DNA of 64,000 nt from Microcoleus sp. (GTDB lineage Bacteria; Cyanobacteriota; Cyanobacteriia; Cyanobacteriales; Microcoleaceae), in NCBI GenBank assembly GCA_042408215.1, contig JAYFMW010000005.1, positions 644,363 to 708,362 of the forward strand, given 5' to 3'. Below, piece after piece: positions 6,072 through 21,032 of the stretch; position 1 is the first letter of the stretch, and every line of letters begins with the position of its first letter. The notes beneath the pieces were generated by a model. That model saw nothing but the letters and a program-made list of their open reading frames with translations, was not told where the DNA came from and did not search any database. A program made the translations under genes and the position numbers.

Positions 6072-8156
6072 ATGCGGGTCTCAAATGTAGCTCTCTTGAC
6101 TCTGGCTGCCCTAGCATCCCAGAATTTAACTGCTAAGACTAGCGCCACTCCTGCTGCACCAAGCACCATTCCTGAGACGGCGCGGGCTAGCAACTTTGTG
6201 GATGCGATCGATAGTACCACACCGCGTCCTGCTGAGTCAATTAGCGCTCCCGAAACGATCGCCAGCGAACAATTTTCGCCGAGGAATTGGGCCAAATCCC
6301 AGACTGGTTTGCTGGTTGCTGCTGCATCACCAGAGTTATCTGCCGCAGCCAAAACCAAGGCTAATATTTTTTCTGCATCCGGGGACGAATTAGCAAAATC
6401 TTTACAGGAAACCTGGCTGGCTAAATTAATTGAATCCGGGGTTGAAAGCACTCCCCAAGTTCGTGATGCTTTCGATTTTCTTGCGGCGCGTGCTGGTGTC
6501 AGTGCAGAATCTGAATACAGTTTTAATAGTACCACAACTATTCTGAATGTTTTGCTAATTATTGCGCTCCTATGTCCACCAGTGACAATTGCATTTTTTT
6601 GGTCAATCCGACGGGTAGTAATCCAACAGTTGGTGGCTGACACAAATCAAAGATTACAGGGGATTGGGGTCTTAGAATCAGAGCTAAAAAACTCAACTCA
6701 ATTAACTCAAAAGTTGAAAGATGAATTAGAATCGCAAATCAGTGCAGCTAAACAATCTGTTGATTTTTTAACTAGAGAAAGTGAACTTTCCAAATATTCG
6801 GTAGAGCAAATTGAAACTCTTAAATCTCAATTTATGATGCACCTGCAAGTTTTGCTTACCGAAGTTAACGAAAGAAAAACTCAAATTGTGCAAGAAATTT
6901 CCCAAGGCCCCGCAGTTGTTGCACAAGAAGCGGTCAAACTCGCACCTCAACCACAGCTTAATATTTCCGAACAGTCACCAGTTGAATCTGTTGGTAGCGA
7001 TGGGGAAAATTGGATTGCTGATGATTATATCAAGCAAGGTGAAGGGCTTTATTATGAACAGAATTATGCTCGGGCAGTTGTCTGCTTTGAAAAAGCTATT
7101 TTCTTGAATGATAATTTAGATCGGGCTTGGTATTGGTGCGGAAATGTGTTAATAAAGTTACAGCGCCTAGCAGAAGCGATCGCCTGTTATGACCAAGCAA
7201 TATCTCGGAAATCCGATCGATACGAATCCTGGTATTATAAAGCACATTTGCTGGTCAGATTGCAACGGTACGAAGAGGCGATCGTGTGCTACGAGCGAGC
7301 CAGCTCGATCGCTCCCAAAAATTACGCTCCTTGGCACAATATAGCAGCTTTATTGGGCAAATTGCAGCACTACGAAGAAGCCGTTGCTGCCTACGATCGC
7401 GCCCTAGCTATCAAAGCAACCGACAGCGAAATCTGGCACAACCGAGGGGCGATGTTAGGGAAACTACAAGAGTATGCACAGGCTGTCGATTCTTACGATC
7501 GCGCAATTTCTCTTAATCCCAATAGATACGAAACTTGGTACAATCGAGGCAATATGCTGTGGAAATTGTTCCGCTACGCCGATGCTGTGGTTTCTTACGA
7601 TCGGGCGATCGGCATCCAGCCTGAAAAATATGAAGTTTGGTACAATAGAGGCGCTGTGCTCGGAAGAATGCAGCGCTATCAAGAAGCGATCGAATCTTAC
7701 GACAAAGCAATTGCAATTAAATCAAACGACTTTGAATTATGGCACAACCGAGGGGTAGCTTTCGATAAACAGTCCCAGCACTCATCAGCAATTGCATCTT
7801 ACGAGCAAGCAATTATGATTAAGCCTGACTGTTACGAAGCCTGGTTTGGTAAAGGCGAATCCTTAGCAAAATTGCAGCAGCAAGAAGCAGCGATCGCAGC
7901 TTATGAAAAAGCGATTACTATCAAGCCAGAATCCTACGACGCTTGGCGTCATTTGGGGATAGTATTGTCAGAAGTAAAGCGCTATGAAGAAGCAATGGCA
8001 GCTTACGATCGAGCGATCGCCATCCAGCCAGAAAATGCCGAAGCGAGGCGCGATCGAGGCGCAGTTGTATCAGAATTAAAACAGGATACAGACAAAATTG
8101 AATCCGGTGAAAAAGAAACTGAAGTTAAGCCCAATTCGGTTGTTCAAAATTCCTAG
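6072..8156 (+). CDS. TPR-repeat protein with N-terminal signal-like segment, one TM helix and a coiled coil
   Basis: About 10 TPR units (WYNRG...YEEAIASYDRAI pattern); hydrophobic ILNVLLIIALLCPPVTIAFFW segment. Confidence 0.9.
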   Translation: MRVSNVALLTLAALASQNLTAKTSATPAAPSTIPETARASNFVDAIDSTTPRPAESISAPETIASEQFSPRNWAKSQTGLLVAAASPELSAAAKTKANIFSASGDELAKSLQETWLAKLIESGVESTPQVRDAFDFLAARAGVSAESEYSFNSTTTILNVLLIIALLCPPVTIAFFWSIRRVVIQQLVADTNQRLQGIGVLESELKNSTQLTQKLKDELESQISAAKQSVDFLTRESELSKYSVEQIETLKSQFMMHLQVLLTEVNERKTQIVQEISQGPAVVAQEAVKLAPQPQLNISEQSPVESVGSDGENWIADDYIKQGEGLYYEQNYARAVVCFEKAIFLNDNLDRAWYWCGNVLIKLQRLAEAIACYDQAISRKSDRYESWYYKAHLLVRLQRYEEAIVCYERASSIAPKNYAPWHNIAALLGKLQHYEEAVAAYDRALAIKATDSEIWHNRGAMLGKLQEYAQAVDSYDRAISLNPNRYETWYNRGNMLWKLFRYADAVVSYDRAIGIQPEKYEVWYNRGAVLGRMQRYQEAIESYDKAIAIKSNDFELWHNRGVAFDKQSQHSSAIASYEQAIMIKPDCYEAWFGKGESLAKLQQQEAAIAAYEKAITIKPESYDAWRHLGIVLSEVKRYEEAMAAYDRAIAIQPENAEARRDRGAVVSELKQDTDKIESGEKETEVKPNSVVQNS

Positions 8157-8446: not shown

Positions 8447-9008
8447 ATGTCTGTTCAGCTTCAAAAACGGTTATTTACAGTAAAAGAATATCATTTGATG
8501 ACTGAGGCTGGTATTCTCTCGGAGGGCGATCGGGTAGAACTCATAGAAGGGGAGATTGTGCAAATGGCTGCAATTGGAACTCGTCATGCAAGTTGTGTAA
8601 ACCGCCTCGCGCGGCGGTTCAGCTTGATTCCCGAAGATCTGGCGACTTTTGCTATCCAAAACCCAGTTAAGTTGACGGAGCGCACTGAACCTCAACCGGA
8701 TGTTGTATTGCTGCTACCTCGCGCTGATTACTATGCTACAGCCCATCCAGTACCGTCTGAAGTTTTGCTGTTAGTTGAGGTTTCAGATAGTACGGTTGAT
8801 TATGACAGAGATGTGAAAGTATCCATTTACGCTCGTTCAGGGATTCAAGAAGTTTGGCTGGTAGATTTAGTGAGAAAATTGTTTGGAAGTCTACCGCCAG
8901 CCAGGCCCGAACGGTTATAGTTTAATGCTCAAGTTTTGGCGCGGTCAACAAGTTGCGCCGCTGGCTTTTACCGAATTTGAAGTGAGCGTTGATTTTATAT
9001 TGGGTTAG
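8447..9008 (+). pseudogene. Uma2-family (DUF820) putative endonuclease with a +1 frameshift near 8873-8878
   Basis: FTVKEYHLM..G..RVELIEGEI, EPQPDV, LLVEVSDST.DYDR.VK; the shifted frame continues NCLEVYRQPGPNGY...FEVSVDFILG* to 9008. Confidence 0.85.
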
Positions 9009-9015
9009 AATAAGT

Positions 9016-9145
9016 AATGGCAGCTTACGATCGAGCGATCGCCATTAAGCCTGAGAATGCGGAAGCTTGGCGGAATCGAGGCGCAGTTGTATCAGAATTA
9101 AAACAGGATACAGACAAAATTGAATCGGGTGAAAAAGAGACTTAA
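9016..9145 (+). repeat. Diverged 127-bp copy of the 3' end of the TPR gene (7994-8120)
   Basis: aatggcagcttacgatcgagcgatcgccat...aattaaaacaggatacagacaaaattgaatc is present at both sites. Confidence 0.9.
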
Positions 9146-9308
9146 ATTCAGCTATACTGGCTTAGGGGCAAATAAGGTGAGCGCGATCGCGATTAGTACC
9201 GGTGACCTGGCGAGACTAACTGGTGGGTAGGTAGGCCAGGGGGGCCTGAGTTGCTAATGGAGTCCGGCTCTTCTGATAATTGTCTGAAAATTAGAGTGCT
9301 TTTACCAC

Positions 9309-12236
9309 ATGACCCAAAAACCACATCAATCTGAAAATTTAGAAGCCGATGTAAATCGTCTACTGCGGCTGTTGGAAAAGGAACCATCTTTGAAAGGGCA
9401 GCACGATATTGCCGCAATTAAGGCTTGCCGTAATAAGGCAATTGCTCCCAGATTCGAGATTGTCTTTGCGGGGACGTACAGTGCTGGTAAGTCGATGCTG
9501 ATCAATGCTTTGCTAGGGCAAGATTTGCTTTACAGCAGTACAGGTCATGCTACTGGCATCGAATGCTACATAGAGTATGCCAAGTCGTCAAAGGAAGAAC
9601 GAGTTGAACTTATGTTTCTTAGCGTCTTAGAAGTGCAGGAAGAGGTCAATGACAGATATAAAACTCTGGCTCTGGAACTAAAGTCAGTTGACATTACTCC
9701 AGAGGGTGCCATTGAAAAATTAAGGTCACAATGTCAAAAAATTACTGAAAATCATAAGGGTTCTGGGAAAACTGAGAAGGAAGACGAAGCAGAGGGACTG
9801 CTGACATTACTTGATGGATTTGAGGCTAACCGCCAATACATCGACCAATCGAAAAATAATACTTATGGGATGGAGGATTTAGGTCTTTCCAACAAGGATG
9901 CACATAATTATGCTCGTCGCGGCATAAACAGTGCTGTTCTCAAGCGCATTAAATACTACTGCCATTATCCCCTGTTAGAGGATGGTAACGTCCTAGTTGA
10001 CTTGCCAGGGATCGATGCCCCAGTGTTAAGAGATGCAAAATTAACCTATCGCAAAGTTGAAGATACTAACACCTCTGCTGTCATCTGTGTGATGAAGGCC
10101 GATCAAGAAGGGGAGATAGAGACAGCAGAAAAGAAACTAATAGAAGCAATACGGGAAAACTCAGGAATTGGCGATCGCGTCTTTTACGTCTTTAACCGCA
10201 TCGACAAAACTTGGCGTTACCCCAAACTGAAACAAGAACTGGACGATCTGATTAGTGAAGATTTCAGTAATACACGAAGGGGAATTTATGAAACTAGCGC
10301 ATTGCTGGGTTTCTGGGCTAGTCAACTCAAAAATATAAGTGAAAGCGATGATCGCTGGGGACTAGATACTATATTTGAAGCCGAAACCAGTAAAGGCTCA
10401 GATAAAGTTGAAGGAACCCCTTCATTTGTGTTGGAGTTCCTTGATTATTGTGATTCCGATAAACTACCCGTTGATAAATTTACTGATATTGTACGGCGTA
10501 AAACTCAAACTAAAAATGAGCAATATTTGGAGATTATTAATCGTTATAAAACCCGTATAATCGAGCAGTTAATTCAGGATAGCGGTATTCAGGAATTTAG
10601 TAATGCTATCACCCGCTATCTAACCGAAGAAAAGCGACCAGAATTATTTGCCAACCTAGCTAATGATATTAGTGAACTGTGTAACGACTTGTATCAATCT
10701 TACTCAGAAGAGCGCCGTCAGTGGAAAAAGAAACCTGCAAATATTGCAGAAATGACAGAACGAGATTTGCTACAGATCGAAAAAGAAGTATGGGAGGTTG
10801 GCGAAGCTTTTTACCGACAAATAGAAGAACAAATTCAACTATTGGTGAGGGATACCTGCGAAGATTTTAAGCAAGATTTCAACAATCTTCACCAGAAGAT
10901 GCAAGATAATCTTACCGACTTGATAGAAAACTTTTCTATATTAGATGCCTTCGCCAATACCTGCCGCAATCATCATCATGTCACAGCGCCATTAGTAGCC
11001 GTTTTGGGACAAGCCTTCTATGACATTGCTAATGGATTAGAAAATGTTCTGCTTAAGGAATCAGAAATTTTGATTGCTCGTTTTTTCCAACGCTTGATTA
11101 AGCGAGTACGCAAGCAACAATACTACCGTCAGCTTCGTAATTTGTTGGGTGATGATTGTGAAATAGTCCAAGAGTTACAGAATATAGAAAAAATAATTAT
11201 TGAGGGGGTAAAGGTTTTGGCGAGTGCAGAATGTGTGTTTTATATCGTCGAAAGCCCCGATCTTTACGATTACGAAGATAGTGTTTGGCTCTATCAGTTT
11301 CGTGAAACTTTGCAAGAAGCATCTAAAAGTCGAGATGTCAAACGTATGGTAGAAGCAGAAGCACCTATACGTCAACTCCTAGAAATTGATTTTCAAGCTA
11401 AATTCAAACAAACAATAGAAGTTGATTTGGGTTCAAAAATTATCAAAATGCTGAATAAATATCTGTTGTCAATGGCTGAAAATAAACGGCAATTGATTTG
11501 GCAGCAGTCCGCTCGCGCTCGCACCAACAAACGGCAAGCAATAGAAAAAGAGGCTCAAGCGAAAATCGACGAGCGTAACCGGAAGTTGAGAGAAGTTGAG
11601 GTAAAAATTGCCGACTATAACCAAGCAGTTGCAGGTATAAATAGCTGCTTAGAGGTTATGAAATTAGACGACTACAAGCTGCCTACAATACCTGAAGATC
11701 ATTCGAGTGCCACGCCAGTTTTTATTGACGTAAATTCTGTAGAGTCAAATAACATCCCACCAGAATCTACTTCCAGTTTAGGCTCAGAAAATGATTTGAG
11801 TGCGACACAAGGCTATACTGAGACAAATCTTGTAGAATCAGATGACAGCACGAACCTTGTAGCAAGTCTCGTGCGACCTAATTACTTGGCTGCTCAATCC
11901 GAAAGTTCCAAAAAATTAGAGAGGGGACAACTTGTGGAGGGCAGAGTTACGAAAGTTACGCCAGATGTCGTAGTTCTCACTTTTGATGGTAAAGTTGGGT
12001 TGCTCCACATAAGTAATGTTAGCAGCGACTTTGTTGAATCTCTCCCGGAGCTATTTGAGGAAGATCAGCTAATCAAGGCAATGATTGTTACACTCGATGA
12101 CGGTAAGGGTCGGATTGCTCTGTCTACTAAGGTTTTGGAAAAATATAAGGGGGAGATCCTGAAAAATATGGAGGAGGTGATGACTGATGCAGAAGCTCGT
12201 ACCAAGGAAGCACGTAACAAACTGCCTAAGTCATAA
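9309..12236 (+). CDS. Bacterial dynamin-like GTPase (SynDLP/KGK-clade-like) with a C-terminal S1 RNA-binding domain
   Basis: G1 AGTYSAGKS, G2 HATG, G3 DLPG, G4 NRID; long helical stalk; acidic linker; terminal S1 fold (GQLVEGRV...GLLHISNVS...RIALSTKVLE). Confidence 0.88.
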   Translation: MTQKPHQSENLEADVNRLLRLLEKEPSLKGQHDIAAIKACRNKAIAPRFEIVFAGTYSAGKSMLINALLGQDLLYSSTGHATGIECYIEYAKSSKEERVELMFLSVLEVQEEVNDRYKTLALELKSVDITPEGAIEKLRSQCQKITENHKGSGKTEKEDEAEGLLTLLDGFEANRQYIDQSKNNTYGMEDLGLSNKDAHNYARRGINSAVLKRIKYYCHYPLLEDGNVLVDLPGIDAPVLRDAKLTYRKVEDTNTSAVICVMKADQEGEIETAEKKLIEAIRENSGIGDRVFYVFNRIDKTWRYPKLKQELDDLISEDFSNTRRGIYETSALLGFWASQLKNISESDDRWGLDTIFEAETSKGSDKVEGTPSFVLEFLDYCDSDKLPVDKFTDIVRRKTQTKNEQYLEIINRYKTRIIEQLIQDSGIQEFSNAITRYLTEEKRPELFANLANDISELCNDLYQSYSEERRQWKKKPANIAEMTERDLLQIEKEVWEVGEAFYRQIEEQIQLLVRDTCEDFKQDFNNLHQKMQDNLTDLIENFSILDAFANTCRNHHHVTAPLVAVLGQAFYDIANGLENVLLKESEILIARFFQRLIKRVRKQQYYRQLRNLLGDDCEIVQELQNIEKIIIEGVKVLASAECVFYIVESPDLYDYEDSVWLYQFRETLQEASKSRDVKRMVEAEAPIRQLLEIDFQAKFKQTIEVDLGSKIIKMLNKYLLSMAENKRQLIWQQSARARTNKRQAIEKEAQAKIDERNRKLREVEVKIADYNQAVAGINSCLEVMKLDDYKLPTIPEDHSSATPVFIDVNSVESNNIPPESTSSLGSENDLSATQGYTETNLVESDDSTNLVASLVRPNYLAAQSESSKKLERGQLVEGRVTKVTPDVVVLTFDGKVGLLHISNVSSDFVESLPELFEEDQLIKAMIVTLDDGKGRIALSTKVLEKYKGEILKNMEEVMTDAEARTKEARNKLPKS

Positions 12237-12316
12237 GCATTTATGCAGGGGTGTATTGGCAATATACCTCCACATAACGAGCCTGGAAGTGTCTGATTTT
12301 ATAATCTCTACCAGAA

Positions 12317-12571
12317 ATGTCTTTGATTAGAAAAACTCCACGAATTTTAATTCCACCAAAGGTGAGGAAACTTGTTTTTGAGCGCGATGGGAATTGCTGC
12401 AAAAGCTGCGGAAAGAATGACCAAGAGATTAATCTTACGATCGATCACATCATTCCCTTAGCTCTTGGAGGCTCAAATGACATCAGCAATCTGCAAACGC
12501 TTTGCTTCGATTGCAATAGACGAAAAAAAGACCGTATTGACCCCCGGTTTAAGCGTAGATTCAGCAAATGA
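12317..12571 (+). CDS. Small HNH endonuclease (McrA-like)
   Basis: VFERDGNCCKSCG...LTIDHIIPLALGGSNDISNLQTLCFDCNRRK. Confidence 0.93.
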   Translation: MSLIRKTPRILIPPKVRKLVFERDGNCCKSCGKNDQEINLTIDHIIPLALGGSNDISNLQTLCFDCNRRKKDRIDPRFKRRFSK

Positions 12572-12583
12572 AAAGGAAAAAGT

Positions 12584-13279
12584 ATGCCTGAAACAACTCC
12601 TAATTATTCGCCTGCTATTTTGGGTACAAGCATAGCTGTTTTATGGTTTATTCATACAGGATTATCCAGTAGCAAACAATATAATAATTATTTATCAAAA
12701 TTGAGCGATTTTTTTAATAAAAAACCGATAATATTACCTTCATTAATAGTGTTAATATCTCCGTTTATATTGACTCGTCTTGCCCTGCCTGAGTATGAAC
12801 TAACCGGAGCGTTTAAACAATTTTTATCAATATTTACTTTTGTTCTAGGTGTAGTGATTGCCAGGGGAAAAGAAAAATCCGACTCAAGAAAAAGAGATAA
12901 GATTTTAGCAAACTCTCTGTTGGTAGAATCCTTTGAGAACCTTGAGAGATTGAACAGAAATAAAACAAAAATTCAAGAGAAATTCGCTTCTCCCTTATCA
13001 GTATTAAATCTCATCAAACTAGAATCTCTAGTTAATCTTATTGCTGAAACGCAAGAAGTTAATTCAATTAAATTGGTAAAACTACATTTTAATATAAAAC
13101 GTTATATTAAGCCTCTGAAACGTCTCAACTCTAAAATTAGAAAATACAACGATCGACTCAACGATCGACTCTCTAAAAAAATTGCTAACTCTCCAGAAGA
13201 CTCCCAACAATTACTACTTCAGATTTCGGAAATCAGAAAAAAAATATTGAAAATCATAAAGGTTTTAAGTAGCTTTTAG
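12584..13279 (+). CDS. Hypothetical membrane protein (three N-terminal hydrophobic segments, Lys-rich helical C-terminus); may extend to 13391 if one T is removed at 13274-13277
   Basis: ORF starts 12 bp after the HNH stop; hydrophobic stretches; AT-rich. Confidence 0.7.
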   Translation: MPETTPNYSPAILGTSIAVLWFIHTGLSSSKQYNNYLSKLSDFFNKKPIILPSLIVLISPFILTRLALPEYELTGAFKQFLSIFTFVLGVVIARGKEKSDSRKRDKILANSLLVESFENLERLNRNKTKIQEKFASPLSVLNLIKLESLVNLIAETQEVNSIKLVKLHFNIKRYIKPLKRLNSKIRKYNDRLNDRLSKKIANSPEDSQQLLLQISEIRKKILKIIKVLSSF

Positions 13280-13611
13280 ACTAATTAGCGACGACAGCAA
13301 GGGAAAAAAAGCAGAAATTCGCGCAAAATATAACACGATTCGCATAGCACAAAAATTGCGCGAAATGGGTGTTAATCCTGATGAAGTGTGAGGTTTTTTT
13401 CGGTTGTTAAATTGAGGGCGATTCCCTACCATTAGGCAACGCTTCGCGCGTTCGGGATAGATCAGCTTCACGCACTTTTTTTACAGCAGAAATATCAGAA
13501 ATCTGGAAAGTGCGATCGCACTTCCCATCTCCCCATCTCCTCACCCCATCCCCTTATTAAGATTTCCTTAATTGCTTTGATCGGATACAGAAATCAGTGC
13601 TACTATTAAAA

Positions 13612-15217: not shown

Positions 15218-15733
15218 TTAGCTAATCAATTCTTGTGATTTAGCCATTGCCTCATTCAGCACTACCACAGAAGTAGCGGATAAATTCCAAGTTTTGATCG
15301 TAGGTTTGAGTGCTTTTTTGAGCGCATCCTGTAGCGGTGGTAGCCACGCCTCTTGATGTCCCTTAATCACCAGTATTAAGCGAAAACTGGCTTTTTTCAG
15401 ATCCAGGGTTTGAAAGGAGTTAGGCAATTCTTCATAGGTAGAATGACGCTGTAGGCAAGTTGCCACAGTCAACGTGAGCGCGTTGGTCAATTTCTCTTGA
15501 ATTTCTAGGATAAAATCATCGAATTTATGCTTGTTTTCATGACGTGGGGAACTCTGCTTTGCCTCCACAATCCATACTATAGACTCATCTTGGGAATGAA
15601 GCAGTAAGAACTCCGCTATCTTCACGCCCTCCTGAATTTTTCGGTGAGTTTCGCTCTTCTCAATGTAGAAACAATGTCCTTCTGGGTAAGGGCCAAATTT
15701 CATCCCAGACTCAATAATTGGCTCACTCGTCAT
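15218..15733 (-). CDS. Hypothetical protein with possible PD-(D/E)XK nuclease motif
   Basis: KIAEFLLL...IVWIVEAKQSSP; start overlaps the ATPase stop (ATGA). Confidence 0.65.
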   Translation of the reverse strand: MTSEPIIESGMKFGPYPEGHCFYIEKSETHRKIQEGVKIAEFLLLHSQDESIVWIVEAKQSSPRHENKHKFDDFILEIQEKLTNALTLTVATCLQRHSTYEELPNSFQTLDLKKASFRLILVIKGHQEAWLPPLQDALKKALKPTIKTWNLSATSVVVLNEAMAKSQELIS

Positions 15734-16746
15734 TGCAATGCCAGCTCCACCTCTTCTTTATAAAGCTGGATTGATTCGTCTATAATTGGGTTATCTGGCA
15801 ACCCTTCCCGGAGATTTGCGATATCCCAACTATCATCTTTCACAGAAATTATAGGAATTAAAAGTTTATCATTTTTCTGTGCTATAAGAAACAGTTTTTT
15901 GATGACAAAATAGGAGTGACTTGCCATGAAAAACTGGATTCCACACTCAGCTAACATGGCGATAATATCGAGAAACTTTGAAATTGCGGCTGGATGTAGT
16001 GCTGATTCTGGCTCATCGATGAAGATTACCGAATTCTGGTCAAGATAACGGTTTCCTAATAAAGTGTCAAGAATGGAAATCTTCTTAATACCTTCTGCTG
16101 TTACGCCAATCGGGAACTTTTGATTCCCCTTCTTGAACAGCCAACGCCCCAACTTTTCATCATACTCAACTTTTCCTTCTAGAATATCGCTGAGGTTCTT
16201 TCTGGACATAGCAAACTGCTGGTAATTTCTGCCACCTGTAGGAAGTTGGCGCAGTGCTCGTGCTAAATCGAGATAGGTATCATCGAAGCCGAAGGTCTTG
16301 CTCAGTTCGCGGGATTGTAGAATGATATGATGCAGGGAGAGAACTTCTTTTGTAGGTAAAAAAATCGAGTTACTACTTCGAGGCGGAACATGATTTTCTA
16401 AAGTCTGGATACTTTTGGTGGTGTCTTTACCAAATCTATAATAAAACTCTTGACCATCAAATATAAGCTTGAAAGATAGTGGTTCATCTGCTCCTTTGCT
16501 CACGAGGTCGCCGATTTTCTCTATCTCAAAAGTCCAATAAAGTTTATCTGCGAGTATTTCGGAAGCATTGCGTGGTTCGTTGCCCCGTTTATACTCTTCT
16601 AGGGTTCGCATAGCACTGTAAAGCGCTTTGAGCAGAATGGTTTTACCTGTTCCATTACCGCCGATAATCAAATTAATATTACCTAATTTCTCGCACTTGA
16701 ACTGATGGATAGGTCCAAAGTTCTTGAGTTCAAGGCTATTTATCAT
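15730..16746 (-). CDS. ABC-type ATPase (AAA_15/AAA_21, AbiEii/OLD-like ATPase domain)
   Basis: LELKNFGPI, Walker A GGNGTGKT, signature-like TAEGIKK, Walker B/D-loop IFIDEPESALHP, H-loop ASHS. Confidence 0.9.
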   Translation of the reverse strand: MINSLELKNFGPIHQFKCEKLGNINLIIGGNGTGKTILLKALYSAMRTLEEYKRGNEPRNASEILADKLYWTFEIEKIGDLVSKGADEPLSFKLIFDGQEFYYRFGKDTTKSIQTLENHVPPRSSNSIFLPTKEVLSLHHIILQSRELSKTFGFDDTYLDLARALRQLPTGGRNYQQFAMSRKNLSDILEGKVEYDEKLGRWLFKKGNQKFPIGVTAEGIKKISILDTLLGNRYLDQNSVIFIDEPESALHPAAISKFLDIIAMLAECGIQFFMASHSYFVIKKLFLIAQKNDKLLIPIISVKDDSWDIANLREGLPDNPIIDESIQLYKEEVELALQ

Positions 16747-18000: not shown

Positions 18001-18089
18001 TAAGTCTTATATTATTTTATTTCAGGAATACTTAGAAAATTGAATGTAGAATTTCTTAGATGATCTCTTCTGACACAAGGCAGGTAAAA

Positions 18090-21032
18090 ATGGCAAATCG
18101 CATCTGGAAAGTCTTAACTACTGATATTAAAGAATTGTTTTCCGTCGAAGCAGCCGAGGGAATCGGAGAAGCTGGCAAAACAGCAGCTGAATTGGCAAAA
18201 ATGCTCAAAGAACAAGGGCTGGACAATAGCAACTTGCTGCTAGAAGTTTTGAACTCTCCCTTAGCTCAAGTTGTGGGAACTGGATTGCCATTTGTCGGGA
18301 TTGCGGCAAAAATGCTGGCATTTTTCATCGAAAAAAATCAACAGCAGCCGACTTTAGCTGAGTGCATTTTCCTCGTCAGTCAGGCGGCTTATCTGGAAAG
18401 TTTTAAGGAGTTTATTGGACAAGACGAGAATTTGTTAAATCGCATCGGGCAAACTCCAGTTTCCGATAAAGTTAAGGAGTTGCTTAAAAAATTAGCAGAT
18501 TTAGAATTTAACGATAAAGCAGCCAAAGAAACTGTTATTTGCTTCCGCGATTCGATCTTAGCCAAGGAATTTAATCAAGTGCTGTCAGAGCGACTGCAAC
18601 AAGCCGGACTCAATGCCGATGAATCTCAAATTTTGACAAAGAGAGTTGCTGCTAATACTCACCGCTATTTAATCGAAGCTTGGGCAGTTTCTGGCGATGC
18701 AATGAAAGAGCTCGGACAGCCTTCTTTCAGCGAATGGCGGGAGGATCAGCAGAAATATCAAAGCATTGACAAATACCTGCAAAAACAGATTGCCTCTCTA
18801 CCGCTAGAATCCGTATTTGCAGAAAATTTCTCATTCAAGGATATCTACGTGCCTCTGAAGGCAAAGCCAATTGATCAAAATGGCAATCTTGTTAAAAATA
18901 CAGAAGCTTTCGATTTAGAAACTTGGGCAAAAGACTTGCTTGAGGATGAGAAAAAACAAGATCTGGTGATGTTCATCGAAGCTGGACCCGGACGCGGTAA
19001 AAGCGTTTTTTGTCGGATGTTTGCTGACTGGGTGCGACAACATTTGCATCCAGTTTGGACACCCGTGTTAATTCGATTGCGAGATATTCCCACATTGCAA
19101 AAGAGTTTTCGAGAAACGCTGAAAGAAGCAGTAAATGCGGGTTTTGCTAGTGATAATGGCTGGTTAATGGATCGAAACACACGATATTTGTTTCTCTTAG
19201 ATGGCTTTGACGAGTTGCTGATGGAGGGGAGAAGCAGCGGCGGTTTAGAACAATTCTTAAAGCAAGTAGGACAATTTCAGCGGGATTGTCAGCAGAGTTC
19301 GGAAATGAGACACCGGGTTTTGATTACTGGCAGAACTTTAGCTTTGCAAGGGATTGAAAGGCAAATGCCAGATAACTTGGAGCGAGTCGAAATTCAGGTG
19401 ATGGATGACGAACTACAGCAACAGTGGTTGAGCAAGTGGTCAGCCAAATTTGGAGCGGAAAAAACCTCAGCTTTTCATAATTTTTTGCAAGATGAACGCT
19501 GTCCACAACAGGTAAAATCAGACTTGGCGCGAGAACCGCTATTGCTTTATTTGTTAGCAGCGATGCACCGAGATGGAAGGTTGAAAGTTGAAGATTTTCA
19601 AGGAACTAATAGCACTCAATCAAAATTTTTGATTTACAACCAAGCTGTGAATTGGGTACTCACAAAACAGCGGTCTAAATTGCTCAATCGCGATTTGACA
19701 GAATTTGAAACAGAGGATTTGCGACACATCCTGACAGAAGCAGGGTTATGCGTGGTGCAGTCGGGAGGAGAATGTGCTTCTGTAGCGATGATTGAGGAGC
19801 GATTGAAATCAAACAACTCGGTTAAAGAATTATTTGAGGAAGCACAAAAAAAGATTGGCGATAATCCTCTGAGAAATGCTTTGGCTGTTTTTTATCTTCA
19901 GCAAGGCAGTAAAGAAGGTTCTGTGGAGTTTGTACACAAGAGTTTTGGTGAATTTCTGTGTGCGGAACGATTGAAAGAAAGTCTGGAAGAGTGGACGGAA
20001 TTGGGAAAGAAAGGTAGAGGATTTAATACTCAAGAATCTCAGATGGACTGGGAAATTTATGATTTGTTGGGTTATGGGGGGCTGACGGCAGAAATTGTGG
20101 AATATTTGATGGGGTTATTAACAACTCCGGCTGTTGCAGGAGAAGAAAGTCTGTTTCGCCCTGTGGAGTTATTCCAGCGTTTGGAAAATTTTTATTGGCG
20201 GTGGTGCGAGGGGGAATTTATTGATATGCTGCCGGAAAGTTTGCCTCAGAAGAAGATGCGCTTACTGCGAGATCAATTGAAAACTCAAGTGAAAACCCAA
20301 GATTTGGGACTGCGACAAATAGATATTTATGCTGGTTTGAATGTGATGATTTTGCTGTTGGAGTTGCACCGTTATGGTCAAGAGAGAGATGAATTGAAAG
20401 ACAAAATGGTGTTTTATCCCTGTGGGAAACCTAATGCTGAAGGTGAACTTGACGATGCAGGTCAGTTGTTGCGTCTCATCGGTTATAGCTGTTGTGTTGG
20501 GGATTTTGGCTTTCTCCAAATAGTTGGGAGATTCCTCAGTGGCGCAAACCTCAGTGGCGCCAACCTCAGAGGCGCAAACCTCAACGGCGCAAACCTCAGC
20601 CGCGCAAACCTCAGCGACGCATACCTCGGCGGCGCATACCTCAACGGCGCATACCTCAGCGGCGCATACCTCAGCGGCGCATACCTCAGTGGCGCCAACC
20701 TCAGTGGCGCAAACCTCAGCCGCGCATACCTCGGCCGCGCAAACCTCAGCCACGCATACCTCAGAGGCGCATATCTCAGAGGCGCAAACCTCAGCGACGC
20801 AAACCTCAGCGACGCAAACCTCAGCGACGCAAACCTCAGCGACGCAAACCTCAGCGACGCAAACCTCAGCGACGCAAACCTCAGCGACGCAAACCTCTGC
20901 CGCGCAAACCTCGGCGGCGCAAACCTCGGCGATGTCAAATGGGATAAAAATACAAAGTGGGAAAATGTTCGAGGTTTGGATGCAGCCGTTAATGTTCCAG
21001 AAGCGTTAAAGCAACAGCTAGGAATGAAGTAG
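18090..21032 (+). CDS. NACHT (STAND) NTPase with C-terminal pentapeptide repeats
   Basis: IYVPL, Walker A AGPGRGKS, Walker [37 protein letters not shown]; about 26 A(N/Y)Lxx pentapeptides. Confidence 0.92.
20535..20930 (+). repeat. 15-bp coding tandem repeat (pentapeptide region)
   Basis: gcaaacctcagcgac-type units. Confidence 0.95.

Follow-up and report, generated by a model that had tools for sequence, protein, structure and literature searches.

A SynDLP-type dynamin paralogue of Microcoleus with a fused, swappable S1-derived domain: a possible anti-phage module

Why should a cyanobacterial dynamin end in a piece of ribosomal protein S1? The question is raised by a gene of Microcoleus sp. 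(assembly GCA_042408215.1, contig JAYFMW010000005.1) in a stretch of 64,000 nucleotides (positions 644,363 to 708,362, forward strand; hereafter the window, whose own numbering is used); the gene encodes a dynamin-like protein (DLP) with a C-terminal S1 domain and is followed by genes encoding a small HNH nuclease and a membrane protein. As we read it, the locus is an accessory copy of the SynDLP-KGK-HNH cluster in which the variable KGK gene has been replaced by a fused, swappable domain derived from S1. Our leading hypothesis, which we hold tentatively, is that this is an anti-phage defence module in which the S1 domain may act as decoy or sensor and the HNH nuclease as effector, an idea already put forward in a sequence-only reading of the window. 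The three open reading frames (ORFs) lie where that reading placed them; with the parts of the fused gene, they are as follows.

9309-12236, + strand: DLP-S1 ORF, 975 aa
9309-11693, + strand: SynDLP-type dynamin core of an accessory paralogue, residues 1-795 (first bundle signalling element [BSE1], GTPase domain, stalk and BSE3), from homology, Pfam, structure model and fold match
9471-9494, + strand: G1 P-loop, residues 55-62, from motif alignment
9999-10010 and 10194-10205, + strand: G3 (residues 231-234) and G4 (residues 296-299), with G2 at T82, from motif alignment
11694-11906, + strand: disordered linker of about 70 aa, rich in Ser, Glu and Asn, from composition and a local model-confidence score (pLDDT) below 50 at residues 799-867
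11907-12137, + strand: S1 barrel (oligonucleotide-binding [OB] fold), allele class B, both aromatic RNA-binding positions substituted
12138-12236, + strand: Rps1b-like pair of tail helices, as at the C-terminus of cyanobacterial S1, plus the stop codon
12317-12571, + strand: HNH ORF, 80 bp after the DLP-S1 ORF; zinc-finger HNH nuclease of 84 aa with D43, H44, N58, N67 and four Cys; predicted effector
12584-13279, + strand: ORF 12 bp after the HNH ORF; membrane protein of 231 aa without known family, a cassette passenger, frequently broken or replaced

The sequence-only reading had proposed that the two parts of the protein be analysed separately; when this is done, the core leads to SynDLP and the C-terminus to cyanobacterial S1. 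Residues 6-811 match SynDLP (Slr0869) with an E-value of 3.5e-192, and Pfam places Dynamin_N at residues 51-284 and S1 at 869-941 (38 bits, cut-off 22). In the AlphaFold model (mean pLDDT 79, predicted template modelling score [pTM] 0.52), the dynamin core extends to about residue 795 and is followed by disorder at 799-867 and then by a confident S1 barrel with two tail helices; the architecture is BSE1-GTPase-BSE2-stalk-BSE3, and the top fold match is SynDLP (7zw6, E 4e-54). Motif alignment, Pfam and the model agree with the proposed SynDLP-type identity and with the proposed order of intact G1-G4 motifs, helical stalk, linker of about 70 residues and terminal S1 domain. The G1-G4 motifs are nearly invariant across 39 fused proteins, and the extended P-loop of SynDLP-type GTPases (GxxxxGKS/TxL/INALL/I) is present. 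The BSE disulfide pair (C8, C777) is incomplete in the window protein, where Ser replaces the first cysteine and Cys780 is the counterpart of the second; some fused alleles retain both cysteines; the HPRN stalk-tip loop is HHHV in the window and HRHV or YRHV in most fused forms. Within the otherwise variable linker, a Leu-x-Arg-Pro motif (L854, R856, P857; about 11866-11880) is nearly invariant among fused proteins; it is a possible docking motif.

We rejected misassembly or a one-off fusion on two grounds, the recurrence of the fusion in 38 other protein clusters and a single 4075-base contig of sequencing run X9 that spans 9285-13369 and bridges the junction. Among the best 120 of 1326 homologues, 36 clusters are full-length at 69-89% identity, and two distant clusters (52% and 48% identity) also end in the S1 module. 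Overlapping contigs of run X1, which may be the source sample, bridge the junction at at least 99% identity. The fused form is rare: a SynDLP-type match occurs in 128 of 144 genomes of the family, and the fused form in 6 of the 144 (5 of 79 in the genus). Four of these six genomes list both a canonical and a fused copy, and the other two, of which one is 74% complete, list one; in five further genomes the canonical copy is intact in three (the genomes of loci L115, L114 and L007), in pieces in one and not found in one. One RNA run, a metatranscriptome, yields contigs of the fused gene; such contigs show neither strand nor level and are no proof of transcription. In the literature on SynDLP-type and other bacterial dynamins, the KGK domain and dynamin-HNH anti-phage systems, with supplements and subscription journals outside its scope, we found no description of a dynamin-S1 fusion; the supplements of the papers on the KGK clade might list such a protein.

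The canonical locus of the same genome is located on another contig (C7) and encodes a DLP (810 aa), a KGK protein (145 aa) and an HNH protein (81 aa), of which the DLP and HNH proteins are 46% and 63% identical to their counterparts in the window. By these comparisons the fused gene is an accessory paralogue, and the genome's SynDLP orthologue is the gene on C7. When 40 DLP cores are placed in a FastTree tree, one clade (support 100) unites the fused forms with two sister types that lack S1. One member inside the fused group, from Calothrix PCC 7716, retains the long linker and stops after the first residues of S1, with the HNH gene present; because this protein ends just inside S1 and lies within the fused group, S1 was lost there and HNH stayed. 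SynDLP paralogues that have no S1, KGK or adjacent HNH also occur in two other genera of the family (L013:1072-3588 and L015:5956-8238).

For the KGK clade, the sequence-only reading had placed an HNH gene downstream of the dynamin and a KGK gene upstream. The HNH gene does belong to the same small family; KGK genes, however, lie downstream of the DLP in the KGK clade (PMC5827413, PMC10104851). Of the 9 fused loci that have 2.5 kb or more of flank, none contains a KGK gene, whereas 54 of 110 unfused loci contain between one and seven (many near-copies from Microcystis lower this share). Because KGK is normally downstream of the DLP, the S1 module occupies the usual KGK position, that is, between DLP and HNH. 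In 12 canonical Microcoleus loci (L001:8164-8601 and L241-L252), a single slot holds four KGK allele classes that are 31-55% identical between classes, and the flanking DLP and HNH are at least 89% identical. Elsewhere among cyanobacteria, up to seven divergent KGK genes form an array, and toxin-antitoxin genes are often inserted ahead of HNH. We rejected S1 as a structural stand-in for KGK: the two have no profile similarity (probability 2.7) and are not homologous. The KGK model (pTM 0.48) is not an OB barrel, and it has no fold match in libraries of solved or viral structures (best Z 2.4, none with E at or below 0.001), which does not establish a new fold.

The S1 module was proposed to resemble the last S1 repeat and helical tail of cyanobacterial S1, and the model and the best NCBIfam match of the fused C-terminus bear this out. 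The host encodes two three-domain S1 proteins, one of 403 aa that scores above the NCBIfam cut-off for cyanobacterial S1 and one of 299 aa that scores below it; we call them Rps1a and Rps1b-like, following Synechocystis usage (PMC8136920), with Slr1984 itself outside the comparison. The window module is 45.5% identical to the 299-aa paralogue and 38% identical to the 403-aa paralogue. In a maximum-likelihood tree (in which the outgroup rows labelled PNP are presumably Tex), 19 of 20 fused modules form one clade (97/99) inside the Rps1b-like group (92/83), with Rps1a apart (97/94); in 21 diagnostic columns, the fused majority has the Rps1b-like residue in 14 and the Rps1a residue in one. Thus, the phylogeny that had been suggested as a check favours the second, faster-evolving paralogue as donor; since an approximately unbiased (AU) test does not reject a grouping with Rps1a (p 0.36), this donor is likely but not proven. 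Recent capture from the host's own gene was rejected, given DNA identity of only about 70% over about 100 bases and a fused clade that is not nested with Microcoleus Rps1b, although the AU test does not exclude such nesting (p 0.31).

The S1 modules of 37 close fused proteins fall into three classes: A (9 proteins), B (21, including the window) and C (7, with a 13-residue insert). Between classes, the synonymous divergence (dS) is 0.99 in S1, whereas the adjoining linker has 0.21 and the stalk 0.27 (pooled Nei-Gojobori estimates from 14 genes, only one of them class A, with pairs that are not independent). Locus L006 is 92-100% identical to the window on either side of S1 and 54-70% identical across it. 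When mapped on a tree of the GTPase domain, the classes require 13 changes, where shuffling gives a mean of 14.4 and reaches so low a number in 34 of 200 cases, that is, they do not cluster; on a stalk tree they cluster slightly (12 changes, 10 of 200 shuffles). The ratio of nonsynonymous to synonymous divergence (dN/dS) is 0.39-0.66 in fused S1, 0.19 in domain D3 of the host S1 proteins, 0.27 in the fused core and 0.11 in canonical DLPs. In RNA run X14, two contigs skip from 11936 to 12246 or 12253. On these alignments, S1 is a three-class swappable cassette, like the four-class canonical KGK slot.

The classes differ on the surface that binds RNA in other S1 domains. The residues involved are Phe19, Phe22, His34, Asp64 and Arg68 (PMC6705787); we located the five positions on host D3 by motif, with the numbering taken from PNPase. 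Host D3 domains have all five residues in 28 of 28 cases, fused modules in one of 39 at most, and the barrel core and tail helices are conserved despite these changes. The window module has D, V, H, D and R at the five positions; Asp and Val occupy the aromatic positions in 21 of 21 class B modules, and Arg takes the first of them in 6 of 7 class C modules. With both aromatic positions lost, a plain RNA-binding role, which had also been proposed, is not supported for the window allele.

The HNH gene is a conserved partner, as the sequence-only reading had supposed. The ORF contains Pfam HNH_5 and follows the fused gene after 80-90 bp in 15 of 17 loci, two of which duplicate a gene already counted at another locus among the 17; of the two exceptions, one is located at a contig edge and the other is Oscillatoria princeps. 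The active-site residues D43, H44, N58 and N67 and the four Cys (two CxxC) are invariant in 61 of 61 aligned proteins, and dN/dS is 0.15. The membrane gene had been counted as a core member; of the 17 loci, 7 have it whole, 5 have it broken, 1 has it truncated by the end of the contig and 4 lack it. It occurs in 4 of 144 genomes, each time adjoining a fused DLP and broken in two, so we regard it as a dispensable passenger. Of its three proposed transmembrane helices, two are clear in the hydropathy profile (near residues 49-67 and 75-93), and the third, N-terminal one is under the 1.5 cut-off; no Pfam, NCBIfam or PADLOC family matches the protein, and its Atlas matches are only to hypothetical clusters.

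The cassette occupies a variable cargo site between a Uma2 gene and thiC, with the following flanks.

8447-9008, + strand: Uma2 gene, split by one extra base at 8872 that is absent from four sequencing runs
9008-9152, + strand: 145-bp copy (89%) of the last part of the TPR gene that lies upstream (7986-8130); marks the cargo site's left edge
13340-13391, + strand: 3' remnant of a second Uma2-type gene, matching the gene that fills the site in most relatives; right edge of the cargo

The 145-bp copy is also present where relatives hold other cargo (NACHT or OLD-like genes; L020, L023, L024, L028). The cassette had been drawn to 13391; because about 13340-13391 matches the 3' end of the relatives' second Uma2-type gene, this part is outside it. 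The block had been called AT-rich and HIP1-poor: its GC content (0.391 vs 0.451) is indeed within the lowest 1.6% of equal-size windows, but the depletion of HIP1 is within chance (12.6% of windows have as few CGATCG and 29.7% as few GCGATCGC). A scan for promoters and terminators gave counts close to chance. The downstream thiC is split into two frames at about 14180; this and the extra base at 8872 are probably assembly errors.

Of 40 relatives, 16, selected by match and contig room, have no DLP between the Uma2 gene and thiC. In 5 of these 16 the site holds genes for NACHT-HEAT, NACHT or OLD-like ATPases, and in the remainder it holds Uma2-type genes or other local arrangements. The fused cassette is found at the same site in L005, L034 and L035 and elsewhere next to tRNA-Pro, next to a HicA gene or in element-like DNA that contains genes for an integrase, primase-polymerase, polymerase A (family A) or Gp157. 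We rejected carriage of the cassette by phages or plasmids: viral contigs contained no relative, plasmids gave no DLP match, and the plasmid and phage matches were limited to S1. Extra S1-like genes of full length, next to genes for partition or conjugation, are found on Nostoc plasmids (L238:3263-4396, L239:3206-4339). The window also contains, 2 kb from the cassette, a two-gene module (15218-16746, - strand) that matches PADLOC HEC-02A (E 2.5e-162) and HEC-02B (E 5.6e-70) and is a candidate defence system, and a NACHT protein with an N-terminal helical domain and pentapeptide repeats (18060-21032, + strand).

The S1 module has been attached to other proteins as well. A profile of the module run over 301 genomes of the order matches mostly the two host paralogues; we followed ten genomes with a third match and obtained nine regions, a partial census of S1 fusions, which contain three kinases, one Hsp70-like protein, one further fused DLP and four Rps1a-like extras. 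The Ser/Thr kinases end in two Rps1b-like S1 domains and are encoded in vWA-PP2C-kinase (TerY-P-like) operons (L258:2719-6353, L260:2536-6146, L261:2545-6053, all - strand), of which that in L258 continues into restriction-like genes. The Hsp70-like ATPase (L259:2612-6949, - strand) also ends in Rps1b-like S1 domains and follows genes for a GrpE-domain protein and another Hsp70-like protein. A quick tree puts the kinase and Hsp70 modules at two positions outside the DLP clade, an indication of separate captures. TerY-P-like triads whose kinase is fused to an OB domain have been described as stand-alone anti-phage systems (PMC11090510, citing Gao et al. 2020). In addition, L264:1876-3000 (+ strand) encodes an N-terminal domain of no recognised family fused to an Rps1a-like last S1 domain.

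We favour decoy or sensor for the S1 domain because its fold is kept and its functional surface is variously changed, its alleles are old and swappable, its nuclease partner is conserved, and the cassette is located at a site for defence cargo. SynDLP forms stalk-mediated oligomers in which the stalk tip binds anionic lipids and the BSE and GTPase domains project outwards (PMC10104851). By analogy, the window dynamin would oligomerise and bind membrane; as the linker starts at BSE3, which protrudes with the GTPase domain, the oligomer would present many S1 copies away from the membrane. These copies could be bait for phage proteins that attack host S1, as ModB (PMC10468400) and RIII (PMC9409239) of phage T4 target S1 domains in E. 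coli, and capture of the bait might switch on the HNH nuclease.

Several observations weigh against this explanation. No cyanophage protein is known to us to target S1; the ModB and RIII examples come from E. coli. PADLOC, suggested as a check for a known defence system, gave no full-length match and only P-loop-level matches to LeoA/LeoBC, and the absence of relatives from viral contigs counts here too. The changed HPRN loop may weaken oligomerisation, and the class A alleles, which keep the aromatics and His, may bind RNA. The trees of the GTPase domain and stalk differ, that is, the whole gene is mosaic; therefore, shuffling is not particular to S1, and only the age of the S1 classes is special. 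Their dN/dS, below 1, fits relaxed selection equally well. Oscillatoria princeps has S1 and no adjacent HNH, the S1-less Calothrix sister retains HNH, and the fused gene of Microseira is split. Finally, the near-universal canonical cluster in the genus would be unusual for a defence system.

In the first alternative, which we consider unlikely, S1 truly binds nucleic acid or docks on ribosomes and so takes the dynamin and HNH to RNA (phage mRNA or stalled ribosomes), and its alleles differ in RNA preference. The His34 equivalent is kept in 38 of 39 fused modules, Tyr, Phe and His are retained in class A (9 of 37), the S1 fold and tail are conserved, and the OB fold of TerY-P kinases has been interpreted as oligonucleotide-binding (PMC11090510). 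However, the commonest class (B, 21 of 37, including the window) has the Asp and Val substitutions, class A has lost Arg in 8 of 9, and the dN/dS of the fused modules exceeds that of host D3.

An explanation with a similarly small chance of being right treats S1 as an almost neutral addition to a redundant DLP-HNH paralogue; relaxed selection would let the domain drift, and ordinary recombination would mix it. This would account for the rarity of the fusion, the faster evolution of the whole paralogue relative to canonical DLPs, the loss of S1 in the Calothrix sister, the split gene in L010 and the membrane gene broken in five loci. It does not readily account for an S1 reading frame that is intact in 39 proteins, down to 48% identity, with conserved core and tail helices, for three classes at dS near 1 that persist on backbones at dS near 0.27, or for the separate captures of the module by kinases and an Hsp70-like protein.

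A selfish addiction module of the toxin-antitoxin kind, in which the dynamin restrains an HNH toxin and S1 is a regulatory input, would fit the several insertion sites, including element-like contexts, and the tight linkage to HNH; it is quite improbable given the lack of DLP matches in plasmids or viral contigs, the SynDLP-type DLPs that have neither HNH nor KGK in 45 of 110 canonical loci, and an allele polymorphism for which addiction has no need. A housekeeping role, in which the dynamin tethers mRNA or ribosomes to thylakoids via S1, can draw on the binding of thylakoid lipids by SynDLP (PMC10104851), on the association of Rps1 proteins with many transcripts (PMC8136920) and on the contigs in one RNA run, but it is very hard to sustain for a gene that 6 of 144 genomes have, that occupies variable cargo sites, whose RNA face is degenerate and to which a nuclease gene is attached.

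Returning to the defence hypothesis, a broader and more doubtful version is that the dynamin is an immune receptor with an integrated S1 decoy and HNH, that the whole SynDLP-KGK-HNH cluster is of the same kind, with KGK proteins as exchangeable sensors, and that the Rps1b-like module has been grafted repeatedly onto dynamins, TerY-P kinases and Hsp70-like ATPases to serve as bait in general. Few bacterial dynamins are resolved as well as SynDLP, which is nevertheless dispensable under standard growth and has no known role (PMC10104851); a natural variant that swaps the enigmatic KGK slot for a recognisable domain with exchangeable alleles makes function directly testable. If specificity tracks the S1 or KGK allele and needs HNH, the clade would be an immune system with exchangeable sensors; if true, this would be a bacterial integrated decoy on a dynamin scaffold and would point to unknown cyanophage proteins that attack S1.

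Among known systems, SynDLP (Slr0869, PDB 7ZW6) and the KGK clade (PMC10104851, PMC5827413) are closest, sharing the domain order, G1-G4, extended P-loop, stalk, BSE3 cysteine (C780) and the small HNH family downstream; SynDLP is the best match in both sequence and fold. Unlike SynDLP, the window protein belongs to a separate paralogous clade (about 46% identity), has a linker and S1 at its C-terminus and is accessory, not near-universal; it misses three marks of the KGK clade, namely the KGK gene, the disulfide pair (Ser for C8) and the HPRN loop (HHHV). With Rps1a and Rps1b (PMC8136920), it shares the last S1 domain and two tail helices, but the fused module is single, on a tether, with an altered RNA face, three classes and a dN/dS two to three times higher. 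In TerY-P-like triads (PMC11090510), as here, the catalytic component of a conflict-type operon ends in an OB/S1 domain, and the cyanobacterial triads bear the same Rps1b-like module. Unlike these triads, the carrier in the window is a dynamin GTPase and the partner is HNH, with no vWA, phosphatase or kinase in the cassette. Eleos (LeoA/LeoBC) and Bacillus DynA, which reportedly act against phage, share a dynamin-family GTPase, with weak P-loop matches (PADLOC E 5.8e-6 and 3.6e-4; NF052648 43 bits vs a cut-off of 1600); the window, in contrast, has a single DLP (neither a tandem pair nor double-headed), a nuclease partner and an S1 module, and the locus is not Eleos, DynA or TerY-P. In plant integrated-decoy nucleotide-binding leucine-rich repeat receptors (NLRs), a copy of a host effector target is fused to an oligomerising NTPase and has diverged at its functional surface; the window protein, which has no NLR domains, resembles them in concept through an S1 copy on an NTPase predicted to oligomerise, in a role that we infer. 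Set beside these systems, the dynamin-S1 fusion, which is not described in the literature that we found, probably works like a SynDLP-type dynamin with its HNH partner.

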